Source: Candidatus Woesearchaeota archaeon
GTDB lineage: Archaea > Nanobdellota > Nanobdellia > SCGC-AAA011-G17 > CAYFGV01
NCBI GenBank assembly: GCA_964452525.1
Contig: CAYVLZ010000001.1
Span: 65,742-129,741, forward strand
Direction: 5' to 3'
Length of the DNA stretch: 64,000 nucleotides
Position 1 is the stretch's first letter; every line of letters begins with the position of its first letter. The notes under the pieces were generated by a model. The model worked only from the letters and a program-made list of their open reading frames with translations. It searched no databases and had not been told where the DNA came from. The position numbers were made by a program, and so were the translations under genes. Shown in pieces: positions 6,505-62,360 of this stretch.

Positions 6505-8105
6505 AAATGAATAAGAAATTATTTTCTTTAATATTTGCAATGCTTTTAATAAGCGGAGTTGCTTTTGCAGCTCTTGCTTTAGTTGGTTATTGGACTGGTA
6601 ACCAGGAAAGTACATTGCAGATAGATGAAGGCGAGAGTGCAGAATTTTATGCACATTTCTTTACTACACAGAAGCCTGTGGAGTATAGTGTAAAACTTTA
6701 TGATAATGGTTATTTAATTTATACTTTTGATGATAGGACAATAAACAGTTATGATTATTGGAGTTATTATACTGTTAATGAAGCTAAGTATGGAGAAGCT
6801 GGAACTTATACTGTTGAAATCAGGGGGGAAGATGCTGGTGGAAGCATCAGTACAAAGATTTTGACTTTAATAGTTAATGAAGTTAGTGAACCAGAAGATT
6901 TAGAATTTACTGGTATAGATGTAAGTGCTTATCCTAAAAGTGGAGAAGAACCATTGACAGTTAGCTTTACTTGTAATGCTGAAGGTGGTAATACGCCTAT
7001 TACTTATTCATGGAGTTTTGGAGATTATGCATTGAGTAATGAGCAAAATCCAACACATACTTATTACGATGAAGGAGTTTATTATGCTGTATGTACTGCG
7101 CATGATGCTGATGATGATGTAATAAGTGATGAAGTTAGGATTGATGTTTATGGATCTCAGGAAATTAATGAAGCTCCTGTATTAGCAGGAATTCCAGATG
7201 TTCATGTTGAAAGTGATGAAGAAGCTGTAAACATTGTTGATTTATGGAAATATACTTCTGACGACCATGATAACGATGCAGAATTAAGCTTTAATATTAT
7301 AAGTCAGACTAATCCTGGTTTAATAGGATGTACAATAATGTCTGATAGATATGTTAGTTGTAATAGACCTCATTCAGATTATGGATATAGTGATATAACT
7401 GTAAGGGTAATTGATACTGGTGGTTTGGCTGATACAGATATGTTTAGAATTACTGTTATTAGTGATGGAGATGAAAATAGAGCTCCTGTATTAGAACATA
7501 TCGGAGATCAGACTGCAAGGGTTGGTAAGAGATTCTACTTAGATGTAGATGCTTATGATCCTGATGGAGATAAGTTATACTTTAAAGACAATACTGATCT
7601 GTTTGATATTAATAGAGATACGGGTGAGATTGTATTTACTCCTGATAAACACGAGATTGGGACACATAGTGTTACTGTTTGTGTAAGAGACAGATTTGAT
7701 TACATTGAAGGAACTTTGGAAGATTGCGAAACTTTTGATATTAAGATTAAGAGTAAGCCTTCTGGAGATGATGATGACGATGATGACGATGATGATGAAG
7801 ATGAAGGTAGAACTGAGATTACCTTTAATGATTGTCTAGATGATGGAGATGGAGATAAATATGGAACTTATAAACAGATAACAAGAGAATATGATGAGGA
7901 CGGAGATTTAATTGATGAAGATATTGTAGAGATGACATGTGTATTGCCTAGCGATGGAGATGGATTTATAGTGAATATTGGTGATGGATTTAAACAAGAA
8001 GAGAAGAAACTAGATCCATTCTGGATATTTATAACAGCGTTATTGTTTGTAGCATTAATGTTATTGATTATATTCAGTATCTATAAACTTGTAAAGAGGT
8101 ATTAA
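6501..8105 (+). CDS. Surface protein with PKD-like domain(s), poly-Asp tract and C-terminal TM anchor
   Basis: Signal peptide. PKD-like motif (TYSWSFGDY...NPTHTY). D10EDE acidic tract. C-terminal hydrophobic helix followed by KLVKRY. Confidence 0.6.
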   Translation: MKMNKKLFSLIFAMLLISGVAFAALALVGYWTGNQESTLQIDEGESAEFYAHFFTTQKPVEYSVKLYDNGYLIYTFDDRTINSYDYWSYYTVNEAKYGEAGTYTVEIRGEDAGGSISTKILTLIVNEVSEPEDLEFTGIDVSAYPKSGEEPLTVSFTCNAEGGNTPITYSWSFGDYALSNEQNPTHTYYDEGVYYAVCTAHDADDDVISDEVRIDVYGSQEINEAPVLAGIPDVHVESDEEAVNIVDLWKYTSDDHDNDAELSFNIISQTNPGLIGCTIMSDRYVSCNRPHSDYGYSDITVRVIDTGGLADTDMFRITVISDGDENRAPVLEHIGDQTARVGKRFYLDVDAYDPDGDKLYFKDNTDLFDINRDTGEIVFTPDKHEIGTHSVTVCVRDRFDYIEGTLEDCETFDIKIKSKPSGDDDDDDDDDDEDEGRTEITFNDCLDDGDGDKYGTYKQITREYDEDGDLIDEDIVEMTCVLPSDGDGFIVNIGDGFKQEEKKLDPFWIFITALLFVALMLLIIFSIYKLVKRY

Positions 8106-8167
8106 CTTTATTTCTTTTTCTTAACTTATTTTTAGTTACAAAATTTTAAATAGTTCTTAATCTTAGG

Positions 8168-9088
8168 TTGGTTATGGCTAAGAGAAAAAGTAAGAAACAA
8201 AGCAAATGGATTTATGTTTTAATAGTTTTTATTGGAATAGCTTCCATATTCTTAATGGTTGATTTTTTTATTAATTTAAATGTGGATATTAGTGATAAAA
8301 TAGCTGTAATACCGATACATGGAACCATAACCATGGGAGGATCTAGTTTTCTTGGAGGTGAAGTAGCTTCTAGTGAAGACATTGTTGAGTTGATTAAGAA
8401 AGCTGATGAAGATGTAAGTGTTAAGGCAATTATATTGGATATTAATAGTCCTGGTGGTGCGGTTGTGGCTAGTGAAGAAATAGCTATGGCTGTCAAGGAT
8501 GTTGATAAACCCGTTGTTTCTTTGATTAGAGAGGTTGGTGCTAGTGGTGGTTATTGGGTTGCAAGTGCTGGTAACATAATTGTTGCTAGTCCCATGAGCA
8601 TTACTGGAAGCATAGGAGTTTTAAGCTCTTATTTACAGATATCAGATTTGATGGAAAACTATGGAATAGAATATGAAAGATTAGTGGCAGGACAGTACAA
8701 GGATGCGGGAAGCCCTTTTAAGGAGTTAACTAGTGCTGAGAGGAATATTATACAGAACAAATTGAATAAGATTCATAGATATTTTATTGAGCAGGTTGCA
8801 ATGAATAGAAATATGGAATATGAAGAAGTTGAAGAATTAGCAACAGGAATTTATTATCTTGGAATAGAGGCTGTAGATATTGGATTAGTGGATGAACTTG
8901 GTGGTAAAGATGAGGCTATTGAAATAGCTGAGCAAGCATCTGGAATAGAAGACGCAGATATAATAATCTTGGAGAGGAAGAGAACAGTCTTTGATGTTTT
9001 TAATGGGATAAGTGCAGAGGTCTCTTATTATATTGGTAAAGGGATGGGAAATGCCTTTACTGATTTTAATGCAAATCCTAAAGTTTAA
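8168..9088 (+). CDS. sppA: Signal peptide peptidase SppA (S49 family, 36K type)
   Basis: N-terminal TM. ILDINSPGGAVVASEEI and GASGGYWVASAG motifs typical of the ClpP/crotonase-fold S49 peptidases. Confidence 0.8.
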   Translation: MVMAKRKSKKQSKWIYVLIVFIGIASIFLMVDFFINLNVDISDKIAVIPIHGTITMGGSSFLGGEVASSEDIVELIKKADEDVSVKAIILDINSPGGAVVASEEIAMAVKDVDKPVVSLIREVGASGGYWVASAGNIIVASPMSITGSIGVLSSYLQISDLMENYGIEYERLVAGQYKDAGSPFKELTSAERNIIQNKLNKIHRYFIEQVAMNRNMEYEEVEELATGIYYLGIEAVDIGLVDELGGKDEAIEIAEQASGIEDADIIILERKRTVFDVFNGISAEVSYYIGKGMGNAFTDFNANPKV

Positions 9089-9124
9089 TGGAAAGTTTTT
9101 TAAGACATTAAAGTTTAATTATTT

Positions 9125-9385
9125 TGTAGGCTAGACTGGGCTGGTAGCCGTAGCTTGTAACCGTAAATCGGCTTTATGACGGGGTTGAAGTCTGGTGAGG
9201 TTCAAGATTTAGTTAGTGGTCTTGGTCCGTACGTTGATCCTTTGTCCTGTAGGGTCGGTAGTTTTGAGAATCTAGTCAGGATGGGAACATAGCAGCTATA
9301 ATCATTACTACTGGCGCTTATGGGGTAACAAGGGGGAGGAAAGATCAAGGTTAAGCCATTGGCTAGATCTTGTATCGAATCCAGG
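9125..9385 (+). ncRNA. Putative signal recognition particle RNA (7S/SRP RNA)
   Basis: GC-rich ~260-nt island in an AT-rich intergenic region. Contains GUCAGGAUGGGAACAUAGCAGC, resembling the conserved SRP RNA helix-8 motif GUCAGGCCGGAAGGGAGCAGC. 5' hairpin GGCUAGACUGGGCUGGUAGCC. Boundaries approximate. Confidence 0.5.
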
Positions 9386-9390
9386 CATGC

Positions 9391-9870
9391 CTACTTCATT
9401 ATTTCACTTCTAATTTCTAAGATTATGTCACCAAGATTTTGAGCTATTGTAGAATACATTTTTTGTATTATTACTTGATACATGGTTTCTTTTAATGGAC
9501 CTGAGCAATATTCAATGTTCTCCGAAGTTTTTGATATCATATCGAATGTTATTTCTTCTTTCGGTATTTTACAGTCCATGTCTTTTCCGAGAAATATATC
9601 TGTTTCAGGAGACGAATCTTTGATGTCAACTATTTTTACATTTATAACACATCTATCTCCTTCAGAACCTTTTACAGTATAAAGGAATGTTGTTTCGTTA
9701 TTCTCAATTAAAACTCTGGCTTTATTACATTTGCTTGCAGCTTTATTGAAACAGAGTTTATCGTCGTTACAGTTTTTTTCATAACCGATATAGAAAACTA
9801 CAAAAATAATGAAAAGCATTACCAAGATAGGTATTGCTTTATTTGAAGACCTCTTTTTTGGTTTTTTCAT
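9391..9870 (-). CDS. Membrane-anchored hypothetical protein
   Basis: N-terminal basic stretch plus TM helix (IPILVMLFIIFVVFYIGY); Cys-containing ectodomain. Confidence 0.45.
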   Translation of the reverse strand: MKKPKKRSSNKAIPILVMLFIIFVVFYIGYEKNCNDDKLCFNKAASKCNKARVLIENNETTFLYTVKGSEGDRCVINVKIVDIKDSSPETDIFLGKDMDCKIPKEEITFDMISKTSENIEYCSGPLKETMYQVIIQKMYSTIAQNLGDIILEIRSEIMK

Positions 9871-11126: not shown

Positions 11127-11439
11127 TTTTATGCCTCCCTATCATTTTATATTTTCCTATAGAACAAGGTAAGGTCATTTGCCTTTTCTCTTAAATAATG
11201 AATAGTGATATAATGAATATCCTTGTCCTTAAACATTGTAGCCCGTGACACTAACCCCCAAGCTCATAGCTTGACGTTGTCGTGAGCTCCATTGAGTATT
11301 CTCGTGACGGGCCAGATTAAGAAAGTTAAAGGGATATAAAAAGGTTTTGTTTCTTTCAGTAGATCGCAAAGTAACTCTGTAGATTAGTTTGCCCCATTCC
11401 GGCAATATTTATATATGCTATTACTATTAAAAAAATAGG

Positions 11440-12816
11440 ATGAATCATAAAGATAGTAAAATAAATAAGATTATAAGTAGTAGATATACTTTACTTTTCC
11501 TATTTATATTGTCCACAACTTTTTTTCTATTTCAGCACTTTAAATCTGTATCTTGGGATTTTATGGCTTATTCATTAAATGCGAGATATTTCATTGGAAA
11601 TTCTGAGTATTTTGAATGGGTAAGACCCCCTCTAACCCCCTTTTTAATCTCGTTATTTAATATTTTTACTTGGAAAATAGCAGAATATGGTTATATAATC
11701 TTTGTTTCAACTTTACATTTATTTTCTTGTGTTTGTCTAAGTAAAAGATTAAAGTTTAATCCAACATGCTTTTATATACTATCTATAAACCCATTTTTAT
11801 TATTTAATGGTGTATTTGTTGGAACGGAACTATTAGCCATTTCTTTATTCCAATTAATGATTGCTTATTTAGATTATTCTGGGATTTTTTTAGCTTTGTT
11901 ATTTTTAACAAGATATCCCACAATAATTTTTTCTCCAGTGATACTATTTTTAAAAAATCATAAAAAAATAATAAAAAACATAATCTTTTTTTGTTTAATA
12001 GCTGGAATTTGGTTTTTATTCAATTACATTAAAACAGGAAATCCGCTTACAAGTATGTTAGACATATATGCAAAAGACATTAAATCAGGATCTTATCACA
12101 CGATGCCTTTTAATTTTTTAGACATTTTGAAAGTTGGATTATATCTTATTCCATTAGCTCTGTTTGGTTTGCTTAAGAAAATTAAAAAAATAAAAGAGAT
12201 GAATAAATTTGATTACATTATGATATTAATATTATTTTTAGTTATTTTTCAATATTATTCAATACCATTTAAAAGTGCTAGATACTTATTTCTTCTACTA
12301 CTACCGTTGATTTATTTTTCGATGCTATTCATCAAAGATTCAAAATATGTTAAACCAATAATTTTTATAATTTTATTGTTTAACATAATATCTATATTTT
12401 ATCTATTTTCTATTTTGCCAACTCAAGAAAATATCTATGAAGAAGCAATATCACATTTACCAGATAATTGTATAGTTTCTTCTAATGCATGGGTTCCAGT
12501 CAATTATTATGGCAGACCTTCTACATTTGCTCAGAGAAAAGAACTACTGAATTCCACCTTAAATGAGGGTTTCAGAACTATTATATTTTATGATATATCA
12601 GAACCAGATTATTCATCAAATAAAACATTTTTAGGACAATTTCCAATTATTTATGAAGATGATGATTATATAATTTTAGGATATGAAAATAAATGTAAAA
12701 AAGAGATTGAATTAGATAGAACTTACCTAGAAAATTTAAAAGAAACTATCTTATTGATTCATGGGTATGAAATAGATACAAGCACTTTGTCTGTTATTTT
12801 TGGTCCTTCTTACTAA
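11440..12816 (+). CDS. Polytopic membrane protein, possibly GT-C-type glycosyltransferase (PMT/ArnT-like)
   Basis: About 10 predicted TM helices followed by a soluble C-terminal domain. Convergent with a GT2 (DPM1-like) gene. Confidence 0.4.
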   Translation: MNHKDSKINKIISSRYTLLFLFILSTTFFLFQHFKSVSWDFMAYSLNARYFIGNSEYFEWVRPPLTPFLISLFNIFTWKIAEYGYIIFVSTLHLFSCVCLSKRLKFNPTCFYILSINPFLLFNGVFVGTELLAISLFQLMIAYLDYSGIFLALLFLTRYPTIIFSPVILFLKNHKKIIKNIIFFCLIAGIWFLFNYIKTGNPLTSMLDIYAKDIKSGSYHTMPFNFLDILKVGLYLIPLALFGLLKKIKKIKEMNKFDYIMILILFLVIFQYYSIPFKSARYLFLLLLPLIYFSMLFIKDSKYVKPIIFIILLFNIISIFYLFSILPTQENIYEEAISHLPDNCIVSSNAWVPVNYYGRPSTFAQRKELLNSTLNEGFRTIIFYDISEPDYSSNKTFLGQFPIIYEDDDYIILGYENKCKKEIELDRTYLENLKETILLIHGYEIDTSTLSVIFGPSY

Positions 12817-13480
12817 AGGAATTTTTTATCAATATTTTCGAGAGATCTAATCCTTGTTTAAAGACTACTTTATTTGTTCTTTTATTATCTCCAAAATATT
12901 TACAAGTTATTGGAACTTCAACTACCCTATAATTTTTATTTATAACTTGAAATAATATTTCTAAAGAAGCGCCCATTGTTGTATCTTTTAAGTTTAGATT
13001 ATATACAGTATTATAACTAAAGGCACGAAATCCGCTCTGACTATCTGTTATTTTAACTTTTGTTATACAATATACTATTTTAGTTATAATTTTAATAGCA
13101 ATTCTTCTAAAAAGAGGCATATCCATTTTGTTAATAAATCTAGAACCTATGACAAAATCAGCTTGATTTTTTATTATTGGTTTTATTAAATCTTTAATTT
13201 CTTTTGGATCATGCTGTCCATCCCCATCAATTAAAACAATAATATCTGGCTTGACTTCAATAGCTTTTTTAAAACCGGATATTATTGCTTGACCATAACC
13301 TTTATTTCTTTTATGATTTACAATATTAGCTCCTGCTTTTTTAGCATATTCTTTTGTTTTATCGGTGCTTCCATCATTTATCACAAAAGTAGTGGCGTTT
13401 AATTCAGAAGGGATTTTTTTAATTACATTGTAAATTGTTTTTTCTTCGTTGTATGCTGGAATTAAAATAATTAATTTCAT
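12794..13480 (-). CDS. Family 2 glycosyltransferase (dolichyl-phosphate mannose/glucose synthase-like)
   Basis: IPAYNEEKTI...INDGSTDKT...DGDGQHDP motifs of the GT2 DPM1-like family. Confidence 0.8.
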   Translation of the reverse strand: MKLIILIPAYNEEKTIYNVIKKIPSELNATTFVINDGSTDKTKEYAKKAGANIVNHKRNKGYGQAIISGFKKAIEVKPDIIVLIDGDGQHDPKEIKDLIKPIIKNQADFVIGSRFINKMDMPLFRRIAIKIITKIVYCITKVKITDSQSGFRAFSYNTVYNLNLKDTTMGASLEILFQVINKNYRVVEVPITCKYFGDNKRTNKVVFKQGLDLSKILIKNSFSKKDQK

Positions 13481-13482
13481 TA

Positions 13483-13740
13483 TTAATTTATTCCACCCAA
13501 TTCTTTAACTGCTTCACTAGGATCTTTTAATTTATATAATCTTTTTCTGGAATCTTCAGGATCAAGAGTTAAATCCAGCCATCCGAATTTTTTAAGTCTT
13601 GAAAGCACAATGCTTGTATTAGTTATTTTAAGTAAATCTTCTGCTTGTTGATGAGTAAACTGCTTATCTTTGAATTTAGACCACAGCTTAGAATAGTGCT
13701 TCATAATCCATTTTGGAAGAGGAGATATTATATTACCCAT
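13483..13740 (-). CDS. Hypothetical small protein (85 aa)
   Basis: Intact ORF immediately upstream of the GT2 gene on the same strand. Confidence 0.4.
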   Translation of the reverse strand: MGNIISPLPKWIMKHYSKLWSKFKDKQFTHQQAEDLLKITNTSIVLSRLKKFGWLDLTLDPEDSRKRLYKLKDPSEAVKELGGIN

Positions 13741-13847
13741 TTGGTTAATAAATTTATTAAGAGTATATAAGCTTTTCTATACTTCACTATAACAATATTC
13801 ATATATTAGTTAACCTTATAGTATATATATTAACTAAATAAGTTAAA

Positions 13848-15056
13848 CCAGAGAAGACGTAGTTTTCAAGGCAACATCTCCTCTGGCTATGGAGTCCGGA
13901 ATGAACCCCACAATCATAAATAAGACAAAGGAATTTAATAAACCTTCTCCTAATCTGAAGTCCAAAGAGATAAAGAGAATTACAAAACTTCTCAAAAAGA
14001 AAGTCTATCCTTCAATAAATCTGAAGATGCATCATAATTCAAAGTATTCTGAAACAGATTTCCTTGATCTCTTAACTTATATTGCAATAACTCATGACTT
14101 TACAAATAATGGATCAAAAACATTTGAACTGCTTAAAGAAAACACACCAGCATCAAGCACCGTTATCCATCATATCAAAAAGCTTGATTCTGAATATGTT
14201 GAAAAACTATTCATGAAAACATTTGATAAATTCATTAAAGAGGCTACAAAATACAAACCATTCAGAAAAAGAGTTGATTTGGCTATTGATATTACAGAGC
14301 AAATGTATTATGGAGATAAAAATGATTACATGGTTTGCGAGACAAAACCCAAAGACGGGACTTCTCACTGCTTTAGGTATATAACAATAAATGTGGTTGA
14401 AAATGGAAAAAGATTCACTTTATTGGCTTTGCCAATGCACAAATTTACAACAAAGGCAAAAGTTGTAAGAAAATTAATAGAATATGCAAAATCAAAAGTA
14501 AAAATAAGGCATGTTTATCTTGACAGAGGATTCTTCAATTCCGAAATAATTAATCTCCTAAAAGAGTTAAGAGTTAGATTTCTAATGCCTGCTATCAGGA
14601 ATATAAAAATACAAAGATTCATGAGGGAATACAAGGAGATACAATCAAAGATTATCGATTATGATATGGGCTATAGGGAATATAACAGAGCAGAGTTTAA
14701 GCTTGTTTTCGTTGACGATAAACAAGGAACTAAAAGAGTATTTGCAACCAATATTCCGATAGCAGAAGAATTGGCACATCAGTTCTTTTCTTTATATTCA
14801 AAGAGATGGGGTATTGAAACATCTTACAGAGTCAAAGGAGACTTCAAAGCAAGAACAACATCAAAATATTATTCGGTGAGATTATTCTATTTCATGTGGT
14901 CTGTTTGTTTGTATAATATTTGGGTTTTAGTTAGTTTAGTTGTGGCAGTTATTTTTCATATTGATCTAAAGAAACCATTAGTTACTGCTAAATTATTCGG
15001 AGCAGTTCTTTATTCTTCAGAGCCAAGAGGAATAACCTAACTTAGCGTGAGATCTC
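13848..15056. mobile_element. Putative IS element (IS4/ISH3 group) carrying one transposase gene
   Basis: DDE transposase ORF 13889-15040. Weak imperfect terminal inverted repeats (left GAGAAGACGTAGTT..., right reverse-complement GAGATCTCACGCTAAGTT...). Boundaries approximate. Confidence 0.4.
13889..15040 (+). CDS. DDE transposase, IS4/ISH3 family
   Basis: 383 aa. YLDRGFF (second D) and the C-terminal RWGIETSYRVKGDFKAR (E/K of the YREK signature) are typical of IS4-group transposases. Confidence 0.7.
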   Translation: MESGMNPTIINKTKEFNKPSPNLKSKEIKRITKLLKKKVYPSINLKMHHNSKYSETDFLDLLTYIAITHDFTNNGSKTFELLKENTPASSTVIHHIKKLDSEYVEKLFMKTFDKFIKEATKYKPFRKRVDLAIDITEQMYYGDKNDYMVCETKPKDGTSHCFRYITINVVENGKRFTLLALPMHKFTTKAKVVRKLIEYAKSKVKIRHVYLDRGFFNSEIINLLKELRVRFLMPAIRNIKIQRFMREYKEIQSKIIDYDMGYREYNRAEFKLVFVDDKQGTKRVFATNIPIAEELAHQFFSLYSKRWGIETSYRVKGDFKARTTSKYYSVRLFYFMWSVCLYNIWVLVSLVVAVIFHIDLKKPLVTAKLFGAVLYSSEPRGIT

Positions 15057-15281
15057 TTATTTTGATTCTTCATAATTCTTGATTGCTAAATAAATACCAA
15101 CTAATGTGGGAATAGCAAACACTCCAACTTGAATAAGTTTAAGATAGGGAATAGCTACTTCACTGCTATTATCAATTACATTCTGATTATGTTCTTTTAG
15201 TATAATTTCCATTAGAATTACGGCTCCTGCAATGATAAACCATGTCCAAGCCTTAGTTACTGCTTCCTTTAACCAATCCAT
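15057..15281 (-). CDS. Small membrane protein (2 TM)
   Basis: 74 aa with two hydrophobic helices. Confidence 0.35.
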   Translation of the reverse strand: MDWLKEAVTKAWTWFIIAGAVILMEIILKEHNQNVIDNSSEVAIPYLKLIQVGVFAIPTLVGIYLAIKNYEESK

Positions 15282-15360
15282 AAAGAGACAGAATTAAGTA
15301 GATTTATTTACTTTGCGATCTACTGTCTTTATCCGTATTCTTTAATATACTGCTTGGTAA

Positions 15361-15687
15361 TTACTCTAAATGTCTTAATAACATTGTTCCAGGATCATCG
15401 AAGCAGCCATTTGTAAGATATACATAATCACCCGCATGGATTTCTTCCCCTATACAATCCCTATCCACTATAAAAGTAGCAGAATCATCGATTGTTGCGT
15501 AGAGATCCCATCTATCTCCTTCTACGGGTTTTAATGAAGTTAGTTCTCCTTGGTATATTACTCTTTCTCCCCGATATCTTATTCCTGGTTCTTGGTAAAC
15601 CTTTGGAGTATCTTCTGACGAACCAGAACAGCAATTTAGCATTGTTATTAGACTTAGAGTTGCTACGCTTTCTTTTAAGATTCCCAT
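15361..15687 (-). CDS. Small secreted/lipoprotein-like protein
   Basis: Signal-like N-terminus ending in CCSGSS. Confidence 0.4.
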   Translation of the reverse strand: MGILKESVATLSLITMLNCCSGSSEDTPKVYQEPGIRYRGERVIYQGELTSLKPVEGDRWDLYATIDDSATFIVDRDCIGEEIHAGDYVYLTNGCFDDPGTMLLRHLE

Positions 15688-15724
15688 GTGAGGGGGATAG
15701 AATATAGATATAAAAAAGTTTTGT

Positions 15725-16213
15725 TTATTTGAATTTTTCTTGGCCTAAGAAAGACTTCGCTTTATTAAATATATCATAGGTTTGTTCTTTTAATCCTTTT
15801 TCGTATTTTGATGAAGACGAGGTGTGAATAAATTTATCATATATGCCCCTTATGAATTTCGCTACTGGCCTTTCCCATTTTTCTTCATAATCTGTTTCTA
15901 AGTAAGATTCGAATACAATCTTTATTTCTCCAGATTGGATTTTTCCTTTTTTGCTGTCTAGTTTTTCAATATCAGATCCAGTAAGAGTTAAATTGATATT
16001 GAATTTTGTGTAATCATCTACTTCTTTCATAGATTCCCATCTGATACTGAAATCTTTTGTTCCTGGTTTTAGCACATCTTTGTAATCTTTTTCTAGTAAA
16101 CTATAACCATTAACATCGAACCATTTATTTAAGGTTTTATAGAATTCTGATAAGTCAAATTTTCCCTTGTGAGTTAATTTTAATTTTGATACTATATAAT
16201 CTATGTTGCTCAT
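15725..16213 (-). CDS. Uncharacterised ~165-aa protein, paralog 1 of a tandem triplicated family
   Basis: Shares KGxFDxxxLYxxLxxWF...EKxYxxxxKxxxxxxxIxWxxxxxVxDYxKFNIxIxF...W...LH spacing with the ORFs at 16516-17034 and 17073-17567. Confidence 0.5.
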   Translation of the reverse strand: MSNIDYIVSKLKLTHKGKFDLSEFYKTLNKWFDVNGYSLLEKDYKDVLKPGTKDFSIRWESMKEVDDYTKFNINLTLTGSDIEKLDSKKGKIQSGEIKIVFESYLETDYEEKWERPVAKFIRGIYDKFIHTSSSSKYEKGLKEQTYDIFNKAKSFLGQEKFK

Positions 16214-16250
16214 TAAATTAGTAAGATATGAGGTTTAATAAATATTTTGG

Positions 16251-16484
16251 TTATTTATTTTTCTCTATTTTTATGCAGCTTGCTGGGCATACATTAGAAG
16301 CTTCTTTTATTGAATCTATGTCATCTGTTTCTAGGACTTCCTTTCCATTATCATCTTTAGCTCCTTTAAGATGTGCTTTGAATCCAGAATCTTCTTTTAA
16401 TTCAAAGTATTCTGGACAGACAGAAGCGCAAGCTCCACAGCCCATACATTCTTTTGTATCGTGTATAACTTTGAATTTTGTCAT
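16251..16484 (-). CDS. 4Fe-4S ferredoxin (single-cluster, Pyrococcus-type)
   Basis: 77 aa. CMGCGACASVCP ... CPASC cysteine pattern. Confidence 0.85.
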   Translation of the reverse strand: MTKFKVIHDTKECMGCGACASVCPEYFELKEDSGFKAHLKGAKDDNGKEVLETDDIDSIKEASNVCPASCIKIEKNK

Positions 16485-16515
16485 GGCTAGAAAATAATTA
16501 GCTTATATAAATAGT

Positions 16516-17034
16516 TTACTGAAATCTATGGAGATCCAACATTGCTTTTATCTCATCTCGGAAATTATATGTCATTTCGTATAAATCTATCGTGTTTTGT
16601 TCTATTCTGTCTTTGATTATGTAGCTTTCATATATCTTTTTCATTAAACCATCTTTTTTCCATTTTCCTTGTCTATTTGTTACTAGATGTGCTGAAAATC
16701 TCATTTCTATCTCTCCAGTATTCTTACCTATTTGTTTTCCATCTTCTTCCACTTTGATATCTTTTAAACCTAAAGCAAAGAAAGTTATGGTTATTACATA
16801 ACTGAAATAATCGTTAATTATTTTTTCCCCTTTCCATCTTATCTCTATTTGTTTAGAATCTCCTTTTAATCTTTGAACATATTTCTCTTCTTTAAATGAG
16901 GAATTTTCATCTCCGAAACCATAGAAATCTAACCAGAATTTCATCTTTTGGTAGAGATCATCGAAATCAAAAATACCTTTCCATTTTAATTTAAGGCCAG
17001 AACAGACTTTGTTTTTATCTGCGTCTTTGTACAT
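16516..17034 (-). CDS. Uncharacterised ~170-aa protein, paralog 2 of the tandem family
   Basis: WKGIFDFDDLYQKMKFWLDFYGF...EKYVQRLKGDSKQIEIRW...NDYFSYVITITF aligns with paralogs 1 and 3. Confidence 0.5.
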   Translation of the reverse strand: MYKDADKNKVCSGLKLKWKGIFDFDDLYQKMKFWLDFYGFGDENSSFKEEKYVQRLKGDSKQIEIRWKGEKIINDYFSYVITITFFALGLKDIKVEEDGKQIGKNTGEIEMRFSAHLVTNRQGKWKKDGLMKKIYESYIIKDRIEQNTIDLYEMTYNFRDEIKAMLDLHRFQ

Positions 17035-17072
17035 ACAACAGATTTAGAATACAGCATTAATAAGCGTTTTGG

Positions 17073-17567
17073 TTATTTATGTAGGTCTAAGACCCATTTT
17101 GCTATGTTTTGTATTTCTGTTACTTCTTCGTATAACTTATCTTCTAATTCTATGATTTTTCCTTTTATTATGTAGTTGTTATAAATGTGGAAAAATAGAT
17201 TACTTAGAGGTTTTGCTTGCCATTTTTTTTTATAATCAAGAGTCAAATACGCGAAAGTTTTCATTTCAAAATCACCCTTGTAGATTTCTTTTCTCTGAGT
17301 TTTTACTTTATTTAGTTTTTCTAGACGGAATTTTATTTTAATGTTGAATTTAATATAATCTGTTACTTCTCTTTCTGCAATCCATTCTAACTCTATACCT
17401 CTACCCACTGGTTTTATTTTTTCTGTTTGTCCTTTTTCCTGGAAGAAATAATTTTTAGAATTAAAATAGCTCCTGAGTTTCCTCCATAGTTTGTCTGCAT
17501 CGAAAACACCTTTTTGTGTTATCCTTATGCCTGTTGGCGGTGTAACGTAATCTTCTTTATCTATCAT
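17073..17567 (-). CDS. Uncharacterised ~165-aa protein, paralog 3 of the tandem family
   Basis: QKGVFDADKLWRKLRSYF...EKGQTEKIKPVGRGIELEWIAEREVTDYIKFNIKIKF aligns with paralogs 1 and 2. Confidence 0.5.
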   Translation of the reverse strand: MIDKEDYVTPPTGIRITQKGVFDADKLWRKLRSYFNSKNYFFQEKGQTEKIKPVGRGIELEWIAEREVTDYIKFNIKIKFRLEKLNKVKTQRKEIYKGDFEMKTFAYLTLDYKKKWQAKPLSNLFFHIYNNYIIKGKIIELEDKLYEEVTEIQNIAKWVLDLHK

Positions 17568-17605: not shown

Positions 17606-18124
17606 TTAATCTCTACAAACTTCACATAACAACTTTCCTTTAATTTTCTTTACTGGTCCAATAGACCCACAGGACTTACATTTTCCCTGTATTATTTTAT
17701 CTTCTTGTTCTCTTAATATTATCTTCTCAGACACTATTTCGAAAAGACTTGGTTGTAATTTTAATATGTCCGTGTCTGTTAATAATCCTACTAATTTATT
17801 GTTTAGGACTACTGGTAATCTTCTTATTTCTTCTTGATTCATCAGAATTAATGCTTCATAAATATCTTTTTCTGGATCTATTGTTGTTATTCTTGTACTC
17901 ATTACATCTTTAACAGGTGTTTCTTGACTAAGGTTTTGTGCTATGACTCTTTGAACAATATCTTTTTCAGTAATCAAACCGAGCACTTTGTTGTTTTCTC
18001 TTATTATTAATCCTCCTACGTCGTTTTTTTTCATAATTTCTGCACATTTGTCTATTGTTGTTTCTTTAGGGACAGTTATTAATTTCTTTGTCATTGCATC
18101 AGAAACCTTTATGCCCGTTTTCAT
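17606..18124 (-). CDS. CBS-domain pair protein with C-terminal zinc ribbon
   Basis: Two CBS motifs (DVM..ITV / EALILM...RLPVV) and C-terminal CKSCGS...CEVC. Confidence 0.8.
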   Translation of the reverse strand: MKTGIKVSDAMTKKLITVPKETTIDKCAEIMKKNDVGGLIIRENNKVLGLITEKDIVQRVIAQNLSQETPVKDVMSTRITTIDPEKDIYEALILMNQEEIRRLPVVLNNKLVGLLTDTDILKLQPSLFEIVSEKIILREQEDKIIQGKCKSCGSIGPVKKIKGKLLCEVCRD

Positions 18125-18239
18125 ATGCTAATAAAGTATTATGAGTTAATAAATGCTTTGTTTTATAGACAATTCAACCGTAAGTTTTATAAATACTCTA
18201 ATTTTCTCAATTGCTGAATTTATGCTTGGGAGGGGTAAA

Positions 18240-19865
18240 ATGACTCAAAATCAACCTATTTTTATATTGCCAGAAGGTTATCAAAGAACCATGGGCAAGG
18301 ATGCCCAAAGAAATAATATTATGACTGCTAAAATTGTGGCGGAGACTGTAAGGACAACTCTTGGGCCAAAGGGAATGGACAAGATGTTAGTCGATACTAC
18401 GGGAGATGTTATTGTTACTAATGATGGTGTTACAATATTGAACGAAATGCAGATAGAGCATCCGGCTGCTAAGATGATAGTTGAGGTGGCTAAAACACAG
18501 GAAGATGAAGTTGGTGATGGTACAACTACGGCTGTTGTTTTTGCTGGAGAACTATTAAAGAATGCTGAAAATTTGTTAGATAAAGAAGTTCATCCTACTG
18601 TTATTGCTAAGGGTTATAGATTAGCAGCAACAGAGGCTCAGAAGATTCTTAATGAAATATCTGAAAATATAGATATTAAAGATGATCAGCTTTTGAAAAA
18701 TATAGCTATAACGGCTATGACTGGAAAAGGAGCAGAGGCCAATAAAGAAAGGTTGGCTGAGTTAAGTGTTAAGGCCGTTAAACAAGTTGCTGAAGATGAT
18801 GATGTTGATTTGGATAATATAAAGATAGAAAAAAATGTTGGCGGCGGAACCGAAGATAGTGAATTGGTTAATGGTATTGTTTTAGATAAAGAAAGAGTTC
18901 ATAGTGGTATGCCTAGGTCCATTAAGAATGCTAAAATAGCTTTGATAGATTCTGCTTTAGAAATTAAAAACACTGAAATAGATGCGAAGATACAGATAGA
19001 TGATCCTAGTAAGTTACAAAGCTTTATGGATCAAGAAGAGGCTATATTAAAGAAGATGGTTGATGACATCGTCAAATCCGGTGCTAATGTTGTTTTCTGT
19101 CAGAAAGGTATTGACGATGTTGCACAACATTACTTGTCTAAAAATAAAATTTATGCTGCTAGAAGAGTTAAAAAAAGTGACATGGAAAAGTTAGCTAAGG
19201 CTACTAGTGCCTCTATTGTTAGCAAGATTAGTGAATTATCAGAGGAAGAATTAGGAAATGCCGGTGTTGTTGAAGAAAAGAAAATCGGAGATGAAGAGAT
19301 GACATATGTTAAAGATTGTAAAAATCCTAAAGCAGTTACTTTACTTGTCAAGGGTGGAACTGAGCATGTTGTTGATGAGGTTGAGAGAGCTGTTAAAGAT
19401 GCTCTTGGAGACGTGGCAGCAGCTTTGAAATTAAAGAAAGTTGTTGCTGGTGGTGGAGCTCCTGAGGTTGAATTAGCTAGAAGATTAAGAGAATACTCAA
19501 ATAAGTTAAGTGGAAGAGAACAACTAGCTGTTTTATCTTTTGCAGATTCCATTGAAGTGATCCCAACAACTTTAGCAGAGAATGCCGGATTAGACCCTAT
19601 TGATTTGTTAACAGAATTAAAAGTTAGACATGATAAAAATGAAAAGTGGGCAGGCATTGATATCTTTACAGGAAAAATAGTTGACTCGTGGAAAGAAGGC
19701 GTAGTAGAGCCTTTGAAAATTAAAACACAAGCAATAAAATCTGCTAGCGAAGTTGCTGAATTGATATTAAGAATAGATGATGTAATAGCGGCAGGAAGTT
19801 CAACTAGAGAGCCAGCTATGCCTCCTGGTGGCATGGGCGGTATGGGTGGAATGCCACAGATGTAA
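18240..19865 (+). CDS. ths: Thermosome subunit (group II chaperonin)
   Basis: [27 protein letters not shown]...[12 protein letters not shown]...GDGTTT. C-terminal GGMGGMGGM tail. The track ORF begins at 18153, but the canonical start is the ATG at 18240. Confidence 0.9.
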
Positions 19866-19904: not shown

Positions 19905-21269
19905 ATGAAAAGAGGGATTTTGTTCTTGATTATTTTTATTTTAATAGCTTCACCTTTAGTTAATGCTTATTCTTTTTGGGATTTTAGAGAGGATAGAGAT
20001 GAATTAAAGGATAGGCTTATTAGACTAATTACTGGTTCTGGAACTTCTTCTACTGGTTCTGGAACTTCTTCGTCTCTTCCTGCTGAGCCTCCTGATGACG
20101 GGTGTCCTCCTGAAGGTTGTGCTGTTCCTGAAGAAGACTCAAATCTATTCCCCGGTGGTGGTGGAGGAGGTCCTGACGACGATGTTTGTGACCCTGATGA
20201 CCCTCATTTTTGTGTACCTGTTCCTTATTTTGATTTAGATAAATATGGGGTTGCTGCATGGGTACCTTGGCTGAATTTAAGTCAATGTGGGGATGGTACT
20301 TTATATGGAGAATGCTCTAAAAATGTTCCTAAGTATTGTGAAGATGGCGATTTGATAGATGATTGCAGTATTTGTGGATGTCCTCCTGGGACTGGAGAAT
20401 GTTTAGAAGATGGTAGTTGTGGAGATGCTGTTAATTGTGATTATGCTGGTGGAATTTGTGATACTACTTGCTCTTCTGGATTTATACATTATTCTAGGTT
20501 GGATGATACTTGTAGTAGTGAAGTTATAAGTCAGGATGCTAGACCTTTAATAGAAATTGCTGGAGAAGCAGTGGCAGAAGGTATAAAGTGTTGTATTCCT
20601 TTTAGATATGGAACTTTCACTAATGTGACTTATAAACAATACGTAGAAAAGGAATGGCTTAATGTTAGTATGAATAGGACTTTGACTTATTTTGGTGCTA
20701 TTGATGAGTGTGTTGATTTAAGTGATTATAATAAATGTTCTAGTGATAAACCTTTGTATTGTTATAGAGGTGATCTTTATAATTTCTGTAGTAAATGTGG
20801 ATGTCCTGAAGGACAGTTTTGTAATCCTCTGACTAATGTTTGTGTTGGTGTCGCTGAGAAAGAACAGGTAGATGTATTTGTTAAATTCTCTCAGTTGTCT
20901 TCTACTGAAAAAACTGTTATGGAAAGTTTCTTAACCGATCTGTATAGTGCAGAACAAATTTCTGGAAAAGTTGTCGCTGATTACGATGGGAGTAAAATTA
21001 CTGTAGATGTGAATAAGAATTTGATGCTGGTTAGATTTGATGAGCTTGGAAGACCTTCCATAGATTTTGATTTCTCCTCCTCTGTTCCTAAAATTATCCC
21101 TGATTCTGGAGGTAGTGTAGATGAAGAACAAGAACTAGAAGAAAGAGAATCTCCTGGTAGAGATATTTTTAATAGCCCAAAGGTACAGATTATCACGTGG
21201 GGTACTGTTATATTGGGCATAGTTCTTATAGTTGGTGGACAGATATTGTCTAGGAAGTATAAAAGATAA
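19905..21269 (+). CDS. Cys-rich secreted protein with C-terminal TM anchor
   Basis: Signal peptide. Internally duplicated module CS(K/S).....YC..GDL...CS.CGCP.G. C-terminal TM helix plus KYKR. Confidence 0.55.
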   Translation: MKRGILFLIIFILIASPLVNAYSFWDFREDRDELKDRLIRLITGSGTSSTGSGTSSSLPAEPPDDGCPPEGCAVPEEDSNLFPGGGGGGPDDDVCDPDDPHFCVPVPYFDLDKYGVAAWVPWLNLSQCGDGTLYGECSKNVPKYCEDGDLIDDCSICGCPPGTGECLEDGSCGDAVNCDYAGGICDTTCSSGFIHYSRLDDTCSSEVISQDARPLIEIAGEAVAEGIKCCIPFRYGTFTNVTYKQYVEKEWLNVSMNRTLTYFGAIDECVDLSDYNKCSSDKPLYCYRGDLYNFCSKCGCPEGQFCNPLTNVCVGVAEKEQVDVFVKFSQLSSTEKTVMESFLTDLYSAEQISGKVVADYDGSKITVDVNKNLMLVRFDELGRPSIDFDFSSSVPKIIPDSGGSVDEEQELEERESPGRDIFNSPKVQIITWGTVILGIVLIVGGQILSRKYKR

Positions 21270-21300: not shown

Positions 21301-22350
21301 ATGTTTAAAATACTAAAAAAAGGATTCAAGGATGTAGTATCTAAGTTTTCTAAGAAAATAGATGAGGAAGGAAAGGAAGAAGTAGTAGAACAGCCTGTAG
21401 AGAAAGAGGTTGAAAAGGGAAAAGAAGGAAAAGAAACTGAAGAAGTAAAAGAAGAAATTAAGAAGGAGAAAGAAAGTTTTATTAAAAAACTTAAGAAGAA
21501 GGTAACTACGAAGAGAATAAATGATAATCAATTTGAAGATTTATTTTCTGAATTAGAATTGATTCTGCTACAGAATAATGTTGCTTTAGAAGTTATTGAT
21601 AAGATCAAAGAAGGTTTAAAAATGGATTTAGTTGATGTTCCCATTGATAAAAAGAGGATAGATAAGATTATAGAAGATAATCTTAAGAATACACTAGAAG
21701 AATTATTTGATGTAGAAAATATTAATTTAGTTAATAAGATCAAAGATAAGAAGAATGAACCTTATGTAATTGTTTTTGTAGGTATTAATGGGAGCGGTAA
21801 GACTACTAGTATAGCTAAGATAGCTAATTTTTTGAATAAGAATAAATTAAGCGTGGTTTTGGTTGCTGCTGATACTTGGAGACAGGCCGCTATTGAGCAA
21901 TTGGAAGAGCACGGTAAAAGACTAGGATTGAAAGTTATAAAACATTCTTATGGGAGTGATCCTGCTGCTGTTGCTTTTGATGGAATAAAATATGCTAAGT
22001 CAAGATCTATTGATGCAGTCTTGATAGATACTGCTGGAAGACAGCACAGTAATGTTGATTTAATGAACGAACTTAGTAAGATAGTTAGAGTTGCTAAACC
22101 AGACTTAAAATTATTTGTTGGCGAGAGTATAACTGGAAACGATTGCATTTTACAAGCTAAACAGTTTAATGATACTGTTGGTATCGATGGGATTATTTTA
22201 TCAAAAGCAGATATTGATGAGAAAGGTGGCGCTGCTATTTCTGTTTCTTTTGTTACAAAGAAACCAATACTTTATCTTGGAACGGGACAAAATTATGAAG
22301 ATTTACAAAAATTTGATGAAAAAAAATTAATTAAAAATCTAGGTTTTTAA
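21301..22350 (+). CDS. ftsY: Signal recognition particle receptor FtsY
   Basis: Acidic N-domain, then the SRP-GTPase NG domain: GINGSGKTTSIAKIA, AADTWRQAAIEQL, DTAGRQ, KADID. Confidence 0.9.
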   Translation: MFKILKKGFKDVVSKFSKKIDEEGKEEVVEQPVEKEVEKGKEGKETEEVKEEIKKEKESFIKKLKKKVTTKRINDNQFEDLFSELELILLQNNVALEVIDKIKEGLKMDLVDVPIDKKRIDKIIEDNLKNTLEELFDVENINLVNKIKDKKNEPYVIVFVGINGSGKTTSIAKIANFLNKNKLSVVLVAADTWRQAAIEQLEEHGKRLGLKVIKHSYGSDPAAVAFDGIKYAKSRSIDAVLIDTAGRQHSNVDLMNELSKIVRVAKPDLKLFVGESITGNDCILQAKQFNDTVGIDGIILSKADIDEKGGAAISVSFVTKKPILYLGTGQNYEDLQKFDEKKLIKNLGF

Positions 22351-22714: not shown

Positions 22715-24079
22715 ATGGTATTAGACAAATTAGGAAATTCATTGAAAGAAAGTTTGAGAAAGATAGCTAAATCTATATTTGTTGATGAGAGGTTAATTAA
22801 TGAGCTTGTTAAAGATATTCAGAGAGCTCTATTGATGGCTGATGTTAAAGTTGATTTAGTTTATGATTTAAGTAAGAAGATTAAAGAAAGAGCTTTAAAA
22901 GAGAAAGTTCCTGAAGGTATTAATCAAAAAGAGTTTCTTGTTAAGATTGTTTATGAAGAACTTGTTAACCTTATGGGGCAAGAAGAGAGCGGAATAGAGA
23001 TAAAAAAGAAAAGACCTTTTAAAATAATGATGGTCGGATTATTGGGAAATGGTAAGACTACAAGTATAGGCAAGTTATCAAAGTATTATTCTAAAAGGGG
23101 CTATAAGGTAGCAACTCTTGGTTTGGATGTTCATAGGCCTGCTGCTATGGATCAATTGGAACAGGTGAGCAAGCAAGCGAATGTTAAATGTTTCTCTGAT
23201 AAGGAGGAGAAAAATGTTATTAAGCTTTATAATAAATTTAAAAGTGAGCTTGATAAATTTGACATCGTATTTATTGATACTGCTGGAAGACATGCTTTGG
23301 ACAAGGAATTGGTTAAAGAGCTGGAAGAGTTAAACGAGAAAATAGAGCCCGATGAAAACCTACTTGTAATGAGCGCTGATGTTGGACAGACTGCTTATGA
23401 TCAAGCTTCTCAGTTCCATAAGAGTTGTGGTGTTACTGGAGTAATGATTACTAAGTTAGATGGTACTGCTAAAGCTGGAGGGGCTTTGGCTGCAACTTCT
23501 GCCACTGATGCCAGAATCAAGTTTATCGGTGTTGGGGAAAAATTAGAGGACTTGGAGTTATTTGATCCTAAAGGCTTTGTTTCCAGATTACTCGGCATGG
23601 GTGATTTAAAAACTTTATTAGAGAAGGCTGAAGATGCTATTTCTAAGGGTAAAGCGGAGGATCTTGGAAAGAAGTTTTTGAAAGGTGATTTTAATTTTAT
23701 TGATCTTTATGAACAGATGCAGGCTATGAAGAAGATGGGGCCGCTAAGTAAAATTGTAGATTTAATACCTGGTGCGGGAAATATGGGTTTGCCTAAGGAA
23801 ATGTTACAGGTTCAAGAAGATAAATTGAAGAAATGGCGTTATATTCTTGATAGTATGACTAAAGAAGAACTAGAGGATCCAGATCTTTTGACTAGATCCA
23901 GAATAGATAGAATTGCTAAAGGTAGTGGAGTTACATCTAAGGAGGTTAGAGAATTATTAAAACAGTATAGACAAGTTAAGAAAGTAAGTAAGTTGATGAA
24001 GGGAACAGGCAAGGATCAAGATATTGGCAAATTAATGAAAAAGTTTAAGGGTAAATTACCCAAGGGTTTTAAAGTTTAG
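22715..24079 (+). CDS. srp54: Signal recognition particle protein SRP54
   Basis: NG domain (GLLGNGKTTSIGKL, DTAGRH, TKLDGTAKAGGAL) plus M-domain (MKKMGPLSKIVDLIPG). Confidence 0.9.
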   Translation: MVLDKLGNSLKESLRKIAKSIFVDERLINELVKDIQRALLMADVKVDLVYDLSKKIKERALKEKVPEGINQKEFLVKIVYEELVNLMGQEESGIEIKKKRPFKIMMVGLLGNGKTTSIGKLSKYYSKRGYKVATLGLDVHRPAAMDQLEQVSKQANVKCFSDKEEKNVIKLYNKFKSELDKFDIVFIDTAGRHALDKELVKELEELNEKIEPDENLLVMSADVGQTAYDQASQFHKSCGVTGVMITKLDGTAKAGGALAATSATDARIKFIGVGEKLEDLELFDPKGFVSRLLGMGDLKTLLEKAEDAISKGKAEDLGKKFLKGDFNFIDLYEQMQAMKKMGPLSKIVDLIPGAGNMGLPKEMLQVQEDKLKKWRYILDSMTKEELEDPDLLTRSRIDRIAKGSGVTSKEVRELLKQYRQVKKVSKLMKGTGKDQDIGKLMKKFKGKLPKGFKV

Positions 24080-25051: not shown

Positions 25052-25098
25052 TAGTTATCAAGAAAGCTTTAAAAATGATACTATTTCTTTTAAATTGT

Positions 25099-25171
25099 AG
25101 CCCCGTAGTCTAGTGGTCAAGGATAGCGGACTTTGGATCCGTTGACGGAGGTTCGAATCCTCCCGGGGCTA
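25099..25171 (+). tRNA. tRNA-Gln (anticodon TTG)
   Basis: Cloverleaf with acceptor AGCCCCG/CGGGGCT, D-arm GUCU/GGAU, anticodon arm GCGGA-CUUUGGA-UCCGU, T-arm GGAGG-UUCGAAU-CCUCC. No encoded CCA. Confidence 0.85.
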
Positions 25172-25214
25172 TCAAAATCTTTATAAACTATTAGAATAAA
25201 CATTAAACTGTAAA

Positions 25215-29173: not shown

Positions 29174-29177
29174 TAAG

Positions 29178-40737: not shown

Positions 40738-40834
40738 TGCGGGAGACAGGGTTCGAACCTGCGTAGGCACTAAGCCATTGGGTTTCTTATTATTATCCTA
40801 AGCCCAACCCGTTTGACCACTCCGGCACTCCCGC
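40738..40834 (-). tRNA. tRNA-Leu (anticodon TAG) with a 13-nt canonical-position intron
   Basis: Minus strand. GCGGGAG-UG-CCG..CGG-G-UUGGG-CUUAGG[AUAAUAAUAAGAA]A-CCCAA plus a long variable arm UGGCUUAGUGCCUA and T-arm GCAGG-UUCGAAC-CCUGU. Confidence 0.8.
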
Positions 40835-56813: not shown

Positions 56814-56915
56814 GGGCCCGTGGCTTAGCCTGGTTAAAGCGCTGGTCTTATATGACGGTTAAGCTAACAGCTCTAAGAGAGCCAGAGATCGCCAGTTCAA
56901 ATCTGGCCGGGCCCA
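56814..56915 (+). tRNA. tRNA-Ile (anticodon TAT) with ~27-nt canonical-position intron
   Basis: GGGCCCG-UG-GCUU-AGCCUGGUUA-AAGC-G-CUGGU-CUUAUA[intron]A-GCCAG-AGAUC-GCCAG-UUCAAAU-CUGGC-CGGGCCC-A; mature loop CUUAUAA. Followed by T5. Confidence 0.65.
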
Positions 56916-57750: not shown

Positions 57751-57881
57751 GCTCCTGTAGTCTAGTCCGGCCAAGGATGCAGTTGCTTTGCAGCAGAACC
57801 CTTTCGAGTAAGCTTTTTAGGAAAAGCTTAACCAAAAATCGAAGAAAGGCTGAGACCCGGGTTCAAATCCCGGCAGGAGCA
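57751..57881 (+). tRNA. tRNA-Glu (anticodon TTC) with two intervening segments (about 16 nt before and about 40 nt after the anticodon loop)
   Basis: Acceptor GCUCCUG/CAGGAGC+A. D-loop AGUCCGGCCAAGGAU and T-arm GACCCGGGUUCAAAUCCCGG are characteristic of archaeal tRNA-Glu. Loop CUUUCGA at 57801-57807. The anticodon stem CAGUU/GGCUG forms only after removing 57785-57800 and 57808-57847. Confidence 0.55.

Positions 57882-59775: not shown

Positions 59776-59809
<34 letters not shown>

Positions 59810-62327: not shown

Positions 62328-62360
<33 letters not shown>

Follow-up and report, generated by a model that had tools for sequence, protein, structure and literature searches.

The analyzed stretch of DNA, hereafter the window (64,000 nucleotides of a contig from a Candidatus Woesearchaeota archaeon), carries three small genes, X1, X2 and X3, which lie in tandem on the minus strand and are numbered here in coding order (Table 1). 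Upstream of X1 there are a gene for a CBS-pair protein and a divergent thermosome gene; a ferredoxin gene is found between X2 and X3, and genes for a DnaG-like Toprim protein and for a second small protein, C3, are located downstream of the array. In addition, the window carries archaeal 16S/23S rRNA genes and an SRP RNA. The original prediction, made from the letters of the window, had described three paralogous reading frames on one strand, and it was exact both in this and in their boundaries.

Table 1. Genes and predicted promoter elements around the X array, in positions of the window.
Feature	Positions	Strand	Remarks
C3, membrane-anchored, Cys-rich protein of ~160 aa, after the DnaG-like gene	9391-9870	minus	phmmer family of 16 members including C3
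DnaG-like Toprim protein, 404 aa	9912-11126	minus	Toprim_4, E = 5.8e-10
~4.6-kb block from X3 to the DnaG-like gene	11127-15724	.	Membrane protein, GT2 glycosyltransferase, small ORFs, DDE transposase
DDE transposase in the ~4.6-kb block	13889-15040	plus	Pfam DDE_Tnp_1
X3, third paralog, position-3 orthogroup	15725-16213	minus	ORF of 162 aa
BRE/TATA-like element AACCAAAAtatTTATTAA	16235-16252	minus	21 nt before the X3 ATG; exact match
Single-cluster 4Fe-4S ferredoxin, 77 aa, between X2 and X3	16251-16484	minus	Fer4_15, E = 1.4e-13
X2, second paralog, position-2 orthogroup	16516-17034	minus	ORF of 172 aa
BRE/TATA-like element AACCAAAAcgcTTATTAA	17057-17074	minus	22 nt before the X2 ATG; exact match
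X1, first paralog, position-1 orthogroup	17073-17567	minus	ORF of 164 aa
BRE/TATA-like element AACCAAAAtccTTATTAA	17589-17606	minus	21 nt before the X1 ATG; exact match; first bases overlap the CBS stop codon
CBS-pair protein with C-terminal CxxC...CxxC zinc ribbon, directly upstream of X1	17606-18124	minus	CBS, E = 6.5e-31
Related element AAACAAAGcatTTATTAA	18146-18163	minus	2 mismatches; precedes the CBS gene
Thermosome (group II chaperonin), divergent from the CBS-X array	18153-19865	plus	Cpn60_TCP1, E = 4e-187

X1, X2 and X3 are true paralogs. The BLASTP alignments of their products span almost the entire proteins, at 28-31% identity (E = 5e-18, 2e-21 and 5e-20 for the X1/X2/X3 pairs), and a profile-profile comparison between the X3 and X1 orthogroups gave a probability of 99.9% (E = 4.9e-35). 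Statistical support for the three-way similarity had been singled out beforehand as a point on which the prediction could fail, and it holds. The motif first quoted for these proteins, KGxFD...LY...W...EK...W...DY...I, corresponds to conserved columns of the alignment. The positions that are nearly or fully invariant in the family are, in X3 numbering, G17, F19, Y25, E41, D67, Y68, I73, G95 and K153, and no conserved Cys or His columns are present in the alignments. Since the N-termini, as read from the sequence, are hydrophilic, the X proteins would have neither a signal peptide nor a membrane segment; the absence of a signal peptide had also been foreseen. Their net charge, read in the same way, is mildly positive (+2 to +4), with a mean pI of 8.0-8.6. 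X2 presents a conserved loop insert, G-[YF]-G-[DN]-E, after helix 1.

The search in databases showed that the X family is new to the libraries consulted, and we encountered it solely in DPANN archaea of the Woesearchaeota/Nanoarchaeia type. X1 and X3 had no Pfam family at E <= 1 and X2 only a chance-level match to LytM_N, while 62 diverse members of the family gave no Pfam match; NCBIfam returned nothing above chance for X1, X2 and X3, and profiles of 3 and of 62 members found no PDB sequence at E <= 10. We found no description of the family in the literature consulted, which included work on DPANN/Nanobdellota protein families. The view of an uncharacterised family of ~165 aa was therefore sustained, and the profile searches that might have placed these proteins in a known family did not do so. 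A defence or viral role was also considered and rejected, since PADLOC gave no match for X1, X2 and X3, PHROGs gave only chance-level ones (E >= 0.0055), no relative was found in the IMG/VR viral contigs and Foldseek against BFVD was empty at E <= 1e-3.

A word-indexed protein search recovered only 21-42 relatives, all of them unnamed or annotated as "hypothetical protein" and devoid of Pfam domains, the few named ones belonging to "Candidatus Woesearchaeota archaeon". An exhaustive profile search recovered 2106 cluster representatives (50% identity) at E <= 1e-3, and with the stricter limit of E <= 1e-10 there were 1653. Among the 150 representatives listed, lengths of 158-182 aa are the rule, and the only others are two short fragments and three proteins of 197-211 aa. 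The scan of GTDB representative genomes provided 20 loci, 17 in MAGs labelled as Woesearchaeota, Nanoarchaeia or Nanoarchaeota and three labelled only as "archaeon", and the closest orthologs of the X proteins of the window are found in Woesearchaeota MAGs. Together with the archaeal rRNA genes, the SRP RNA and the thermosome gene, these orthologs make it very probable that the window comes from a DPANN genome of the Woesearchaeota type.

To compare loci, retrieval was seeded throughout on X2 motifs, so the sampling is biased towards X2 relatives. Three tandem copies were detected with the family HMM in 19 of the first 27 non-redundant loci. Average-linkage clustering sorted the copies of this first set into three groups in exact correspondence with the gene positions 1, 2 and 3, with mean identities of 34%, 42% and 38% within the groups and of 24-25% between them. 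After the addition of 80 metagenome loci, 45 non-redundant loci with at least 700 bp on both sides were counted, of which 25 have three copies, 12 two and 8 one; the order 1-2-3 is kept in 23 of the 25 triple loci. Saturation prevented us from rooting the triplication with a neighbour-joining tree of 177 members, and the scores against orthogroup HMMs were used instead. Each protein of the window scored highest with its own orthogroup: X1 with 202 bits (85 and 103 with the remaining orthogroups), X2 with 283 bits (88 and 78) and X3 with 217 bits (98 and 92). Furthermore, the unsaturated ortholog pairs have dN/dS values of 0.02-0.12, which indicates purifying selection on all three genes. Judged from the sequences, the triplication is ancient and its copies have fallen into three orthogroups that match the gene positions. 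The orthogroups, the scores against the own HMM and the purifying selection thus agree, as far as evidence of this kind reaches, with the old duplication with subfunctionalisation that had been proposed for these distinct copies.

A single X gene was observed in another lineage (loci L009, L091, L093, L100, L102, L104, L108 and L111-L113). With the HMMs of X1, X2 and X3 its product reaches ~100, 127 and 125 bits, respectively; it is thus roughly equidistant from the orthogroups and does not belong clearly to any of them. These loci keep the local order, that is, the thermosome gene on the opposite strand, the CBS gene, X, and then a gene for an unrelated 458-aa protein that has no match in Pfam or PDB. 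Locus L105 comes from the same lineage, but it carries two tandem X2-like copies, which are the product of an independent duplication, and in the distant loci L008 and L031-L033 the gene context is another, with X present as a tandem of two or three copies. Tandem duplication of this family is therefore recurrent.

One recurrent neighbour of the array is the CBS gene. It had originally been placed immediately after the X genes, and as a conserved adjoining partner it stands, being adjacent and upstream on the same strand in 17 of the 25 triple loci, but the coding strand puts it before X1 and not after the array. The first set included 14 distinct loci with a CBS homolog upstream of the array, at a distance of 31-45 bp in 12 of these loci and of 356-388 bp in the other two; the zinc ribbon is present in most of the first-set homologs and was lost in four. 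As for the single-copy loci, seven of the eight have the CBS gene upstream, on the same strand and within 6 kb. A divergent thermosome gene is also located upstream in 9 of the 25 triple loci and in 7 of the 8 single-copy loci. The Cpn60_TCP1 match begins at residue 62 of the long thermosome ORF, whose 5' extension contains the promoter element of the CBS gene, and the true start is probably at 18240; in that case, the intergenic region between the thermosome and CBS genes of the window would measure ~115 bp. The linkage of X to the CBS gene and to the thermosome appears to be older than the triplication.

On the other side of the array, the DnaG-like gene is found downstream of X3 and on the same strand in 19 of the 25 triple loci, followed by a C3 homolog in 13 of the 25. 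C3 gave no match with Pfam. We considered it as a possible fourth X paralog and rejected it, given that hhalign against the X family yielded a probability of 0.1% and that the protein is membrane-anchored and Cys-rich. The window keeps the usual gene order, in which the DnaG-like and C3 genes are merely split from X3 by the ~4.6-kb block, where the glycosyltransferase corresponds to Pfam Glycos_transf_2. In most related loci the DnaG-like gene comes directly after X3, and the block is an insertion that displaced it. The thermosome and DnaG-like genes had not been mentioned in the original prediction, and both emerged as recurrent neighbours from the comparison of loci. The more distant genes around X loci are those for SRP54, FtsY, ELP3, the ribosomal proteins S15, S3Ae and L21e, and RpoF, to which one lineage adds a proteasome subunit with aCPSF1. 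The surroundings of X are, then, a housekeeping neighbourhood.

Another aspect to mention is the organization of the putative promoters. Exact copies of the pattern AACCAAAANNNTTATTAA number only three in the 64-kb window, where they precede the start codons (ATG) of X1, X2 and X3 by 21-22 nt, and when up to 2 mismatches were allowed there were 8 matches compared to 1.87 expected. In this layout a BRE-like stretch rich in purines leads into a TATA-like box located ~22-34 nt ahead of the start codon, in the absence of a Shine-Dalgarno sequence, an arrangement that is typical of leaderless archaeal promoters. The same layout precedes many first genes in the window, whereas in tight operons the internal genes have GGAGG-like sites. 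In each X promoter the stop codon of the upstream gene falls inside the BRE-like stretch, and X3 has kept its element after the insertion of the ferredoxin gene. Elsewhere most X genes have comparable elements in front of them, while some loci show an overlap or direct contact of X1 and X2 instead. With elements before the individual genes, each X gene seems to have its own, matched predicted promoter; such promoters would fit an equal expression of X1, X2 and X3 and are not proof of an operon.

AlphaFold2 models were obtained for X3 (pLDDT 88.9, pTM 0.81) and X2 (pLDDT 87.2, pTM 0.80), and both have the same topology, beta-alpha-beta4-alpha-alpha. Each model begins with a strand of 17 residues and a helix, continues with four strands of 11-20 residues, and ends with two helices, the last one of 26-30 residues, so that a five-stranded antiparallel sheet is covered on one face by the three helices. 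When the sequence was read against the X3 model, the inward positions of the strands were hydrophobic and the outward ones mostly K, E, N, T and R. According to these models, X would fold as a two-layer alpha+beta sandwich of the TBP-like/KA1 type, a class that is common, and Foldseek found no specific homolog: the searches against PDB and BFVD gave nothing at E <= 1e-3, with TM-scores below 0.4. The best structural neighbours are interaction modules, and among them is the AMPK domain that docks a CBS subunit.

Our preferred interpretation, to which we assign a probability of about 0.35 and which must therefore be taken as tentative, is that X1, X2 and X3 are three diverged subunits of a 1:1:1 hetero-oligomeric, non-enzymatic adaptor that derived from a homo-oligomer and works together with the CBS sensor. 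The ancestral single-copy X would have been a homo-oligomer encoded beside a gene for a CBS-pair/Zn-ribbon nucleotide sensor and the thermosome gene. Triplication would then have given three non-interchangeable subunits of a cytoplasmic hetero-oligomer, and this could serve as an adaptor or scaffold, bound or regulated by the adjacent CBS protein, that links the adenine-nucleotide status to a housekeeping process, for example proteostasis. We infer the formation of the hetero-oligomer, the contact with the CBS protein and the absence of enzymatic activity from several indirect lines. The fixed order and co-retention of X1, X2 and X3 and their matched predicted promoters point to joint assembly, as does the fact that the distances among the three correlate better with each other (r 0.57-0.73) than with those of the adjacent DnaG-like gene (r 0.18-0.39). 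The persistence of the CBS link across deep divergence suggests the partner, and the nature of the best structural neighbours suggests an adaptor.

A more specific version of this idea, which we regard as speculative and improbable in its full detail, would be a pseudo-symmetric heterotrimeric platform of KA1/AMPK-alpha-CTD-like subunits that docks a CBS-pair/Zn-ribbon dimer. Such a complex would play in archaea, without a kinase, the part of the AMPK regulatory core; it would sense adenine nucleotides and gate either thermosome-linked proteostasis or, with the DnaG-like protein, RNA/DNA transactions in energy-dependent, host-associated DPANN cells, its homo-oligomeric ancestor surviving in the single-copy lineages.

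Other roles have to be weighed against the adaptor. The position of the ferredoxin gene, on the same strand and separated by gaps of 31 and 37 bp from the flanking X2 and X3, could suggest that the four proteins constitute a redox module, and a partnership with the ferredoxin had been implied in the original prediction, which saw the array as built around its gene. The gene does lie between two X genes, X2 and X3 in coding order. However, among the 45 informative non-redundant loci the window is the only one with a ferredoxin inside the array, and the loci contain just one further ferredoxin, at 4.5 kb from the array (L006/L007). The X2-X3 spacer elsewhere measures ~30-40 bp, and it is this place that the ferredoxin gene, with its own TATA-like element, occupies in the window; it is therefore a lineage-specific insertion. 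The ferredoxin is not part of the conserved X module and its link with it is incidental. Since the X proteins also lack a conserved Cys/His cluster and the ferredoxin has a predicted promoter of its own, the redox module is largely refuted by the comparative data, and we give it hardly any credit.

It is also conceivable, if unlikely, that each of X1-X3 carries small molecules or lipids on its own, in the manner of START/Bet v 1 (SRPBCC) proteins and with differing ligands, for example host isoprenoid lipids in a lipid-auxotrophic DPANN cell. Against this, none of the 62 members matched START, Bet_v_1, Polyketide_cyc or AHSA1 in Pfam, and the models have five strands instead of seven, with a 1+2 arrangement of the three covering helices that differs from the helix-grip fold (beta-alpha-alpha-beta6-alpha); the TM-scores given by Foldseek to START proteins are only 0.17-0.28. 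In addition, independent carriers would account less well than co-assembly for the fixed order and for the 1:1:1 retention. We consider it distinctly unlikely that the X proteins are RNA- or nucleic-acid-binding accessories of information processing that use a KA1/TBP-like surface and work with the DnaG-like protein. Their net charge is only mildly positive and the exposed face of the sheet mixes acidic and basic residues, no known nucleic-acid-binding family was matched, and the X proteins evolve ~2.5-3 times faster than the DnaG-like protein, which in the single-copy lineage is not even a neighbour, its place being taken by the unrelated 458-aa protein. A role as thermosome co-chaperones or substrate adaptors, co-regulated from a shared divergent promoter region, would agree with a linkage that spans deep divergence, as the thermosome counts in triple and single-copy loci attest, and with the short intergenic region of the window if the start at 18240 is correct. 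Nevertheless, the thermosome and X are always separated by the CBS gene, a nearby thermosome is missing from many triple loci, and nothing in the X proteins resembles prefoldin, sHSP or other known co-chaperone families, for which reason we judge this role very unlikely.

If the X proteins do assemble with the CBS sensor, they would represent a regulatory complex specific to one lineage, in organisms reliant on hosts for energy, as well as a clean case of a homo-oligomer turned into a hetero-oligomer. If they do not, it would still be useful to define them as a new domain family, which could mark genomes of the Woesearchaeota type. Only a minority of DPANN proteins have been given a function. 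The X family is large and under purifying selection, has matched predicted promoters that look strong, and is surrounded by core genes (thermosome, SRP54/FtsY, DnaG-like protein, ribosomal proteins), yet it is missing from Pfam, NCBIfam and PDB. The comparative picture is that of one gene that became three genes in fixed order, with the CBS nucleotide-sensor neighbour kept throughout.

With respect to known systems, the X models share the beta-alpha-beta4-alpha fold with KA1 and with the C-terminal domain of the AMPK/SNF1 alpha subunit. Nonetheless, none of the 62 X members matched KA1 (PF02149) at E <= 0.1, and KA1 is a C-terminal appendage of kinases with a basic patch that binds acidic phospholipids, whereas X is a stand-alone and longer protein of 160-180 aa. 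The models also follow the S1-H1-S2-S3-S4-S5-H2 order of the TBP-like fold, with the helices on one face of the sheet. The TBP-like proteins that come near X are DUF4468, BDI_3606 ("TBP-like"), the C-terminal domain of phosphoglucomutase and the SAMDC-like domain of spermine synthase, all of them with no sequence relationship to X, and TBP itself is outside the 60 best matches. Moreover, X has one repeat per polypeptide and three separate paralogs instead of an internal duplication. Several archaeal hetero-oligomers arose from duplicated homo-oligomer subunits, such as crenarchaeal PCNA1-3, thermosome alpha/beta/gamma and proteasome alpha/beta. Their folds and sequences are unrelated to those of X, whose oligomers we only infer, so the likeness is an evolutionary analogy and not a membership. 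As an analogy, the pattern would be the same: some lineages have a single copy, and in others there are two or three paralogs that have diverged, lie together and are individually conserved.

The order of genes around the three tandem paralogs (X1, X2 and X3) is interrupted by a block of about 4.6 kb that breaks the junction, conserved elsewhere, between X3 and the DnaG-like gene. Besides a DDE_Tnp_1 transposase, this block encodes a 458-aa membrane protein and a GT2 glycosyltransferase, and it also holds ORFs of 85 aa, 74 aa (a membrane protein) and 108 aa (with a lipoprotein-like N-terminus). The X2-X3 junction tolerates change in other genomes too (L029, L049 and L057): related locus L029 carries a 2.3-kb insertion at this position (7475-9760), and in L049 and L057 X3 is inverted along with the DnaG-like and C3 genes, X1 being inverted as well in L057.

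C3 (9391-9870, -) encodes a conserved protein, roughly 160 aa long, that is anchored in the membrane by its N-terminus and has several Cys residues as well as the motif CSGPLKESMYEL; Pfam gave no match for it. Homologs occur in at least 13 loci, and in 13 of the 25 loci with three X copies they come after the DnaG-like gene. In most loci of the single-copy lineages, a gene for a conserved 456-461-aa protein, with no match in Pfam or PDB, was observed after the X gene, and this protein may be a further functional partner. The SRP RNA and the C3 ORF lie on opposite strands, and the 3' end of the former overlaps the end of the latter by a few bases; the genes for SRP54 (22715-24079) and FtsY (21301-22350) share the neighborhood of the SRP RNA gene.

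Features of the window and of related loci (window positions unless a locus is named)
Feature	Position	Strand	Remarks
1441-aa protein, large, putative surface	599-4924	+	Sortilin-Vps10/BNR repeats
PKD/Ig-domain protein, large, putative surface	6501-8105	+	
SRP RNA, archaeal	9124-9396	+	137.7 bits
Block of ~4.6 kb between X3 and DnaG-like gene	11127-15724		
DDE_Tnp_1 transposase in the block	13889-15040	+	
454-aa Cys-rich protein, large, putative surface	19905-21269	+	signal-like N-terminus, C-terminal membrane anchor
tRNA match (Rfam)	40738-40834	-	
tRNA match (Rfam)	56814-56915	+	
tRNA match (Rfam)	57751-57881	+	
16S rRNA gene, archaeal	59336-61497	+	rRNA model match
195-aa ORF inside the 16S rRNA gene insertion	60240-60827		
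23S rRNA gene, incomplete, ends at window edge	61863-64000	+	
206-aa ORF within the 23S rRNA gene	63058-63678		LAGLIDADG_3 domain, E 1.5e-7
C3 homolog (example)	L012 9597-10079		
456-461-aa protein gene	L009 6553-7929		homologs in L100, L102, L104, L105, L108, L112, L113, L091

An insertion was also found in the 16S rRNA gene. The rRNA match extends over 2162 nt compared with 1478 nt in the model, and therefore the gene contains an insertion of approximately 680 nt; the ORF inside it had no Pfam match, and the insertion is probably an rRNA intron that holds this unrecognised ORF. The LAGLIDADG_3 ORF of the 23S rRNA gene, in turn, looks like an intron-encoded homing endonuclease. In addition, the three Rfam tRNA matches (97-131 nt each) were missed by ARAGORN, which reported only a tRNA-Gln at 25098-25173 in the window; they are probably intron-containing tRNA genes.

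As regards expression signals, many first genes (for example those at 599, 22715, 24440, 27381, 48631 and 49566-50201) present a AAAnnTTTATAA/TTATTAA element that ends about 22-26 nt ahead of the ATG, without a Shine-Dalgarno site, which suggests leaderless mRNAs. In the tight cluster 28031-34883, the internal genes carry GGAGG/GAGGTG sites instead. The longest ORF of the thermosome gene starts at 18153 (+), and its Cpn60_TCP1 match runs from residue 62 onward. Ahead of the ATG at 18240 (+) there are a GGGAGGGG site and a TTTTATAAATA element, and the 5' extension of the long ORF (18153-18240) contains the promoter element of the divergent CBS gene; the true start is probably 18240.

Adjoining the thermosome gene is that of the 454-aa Cys-rich protein, one of three putative surface proteins that might have a bearing on the cell-cell contacts of a DPANN archaeon.
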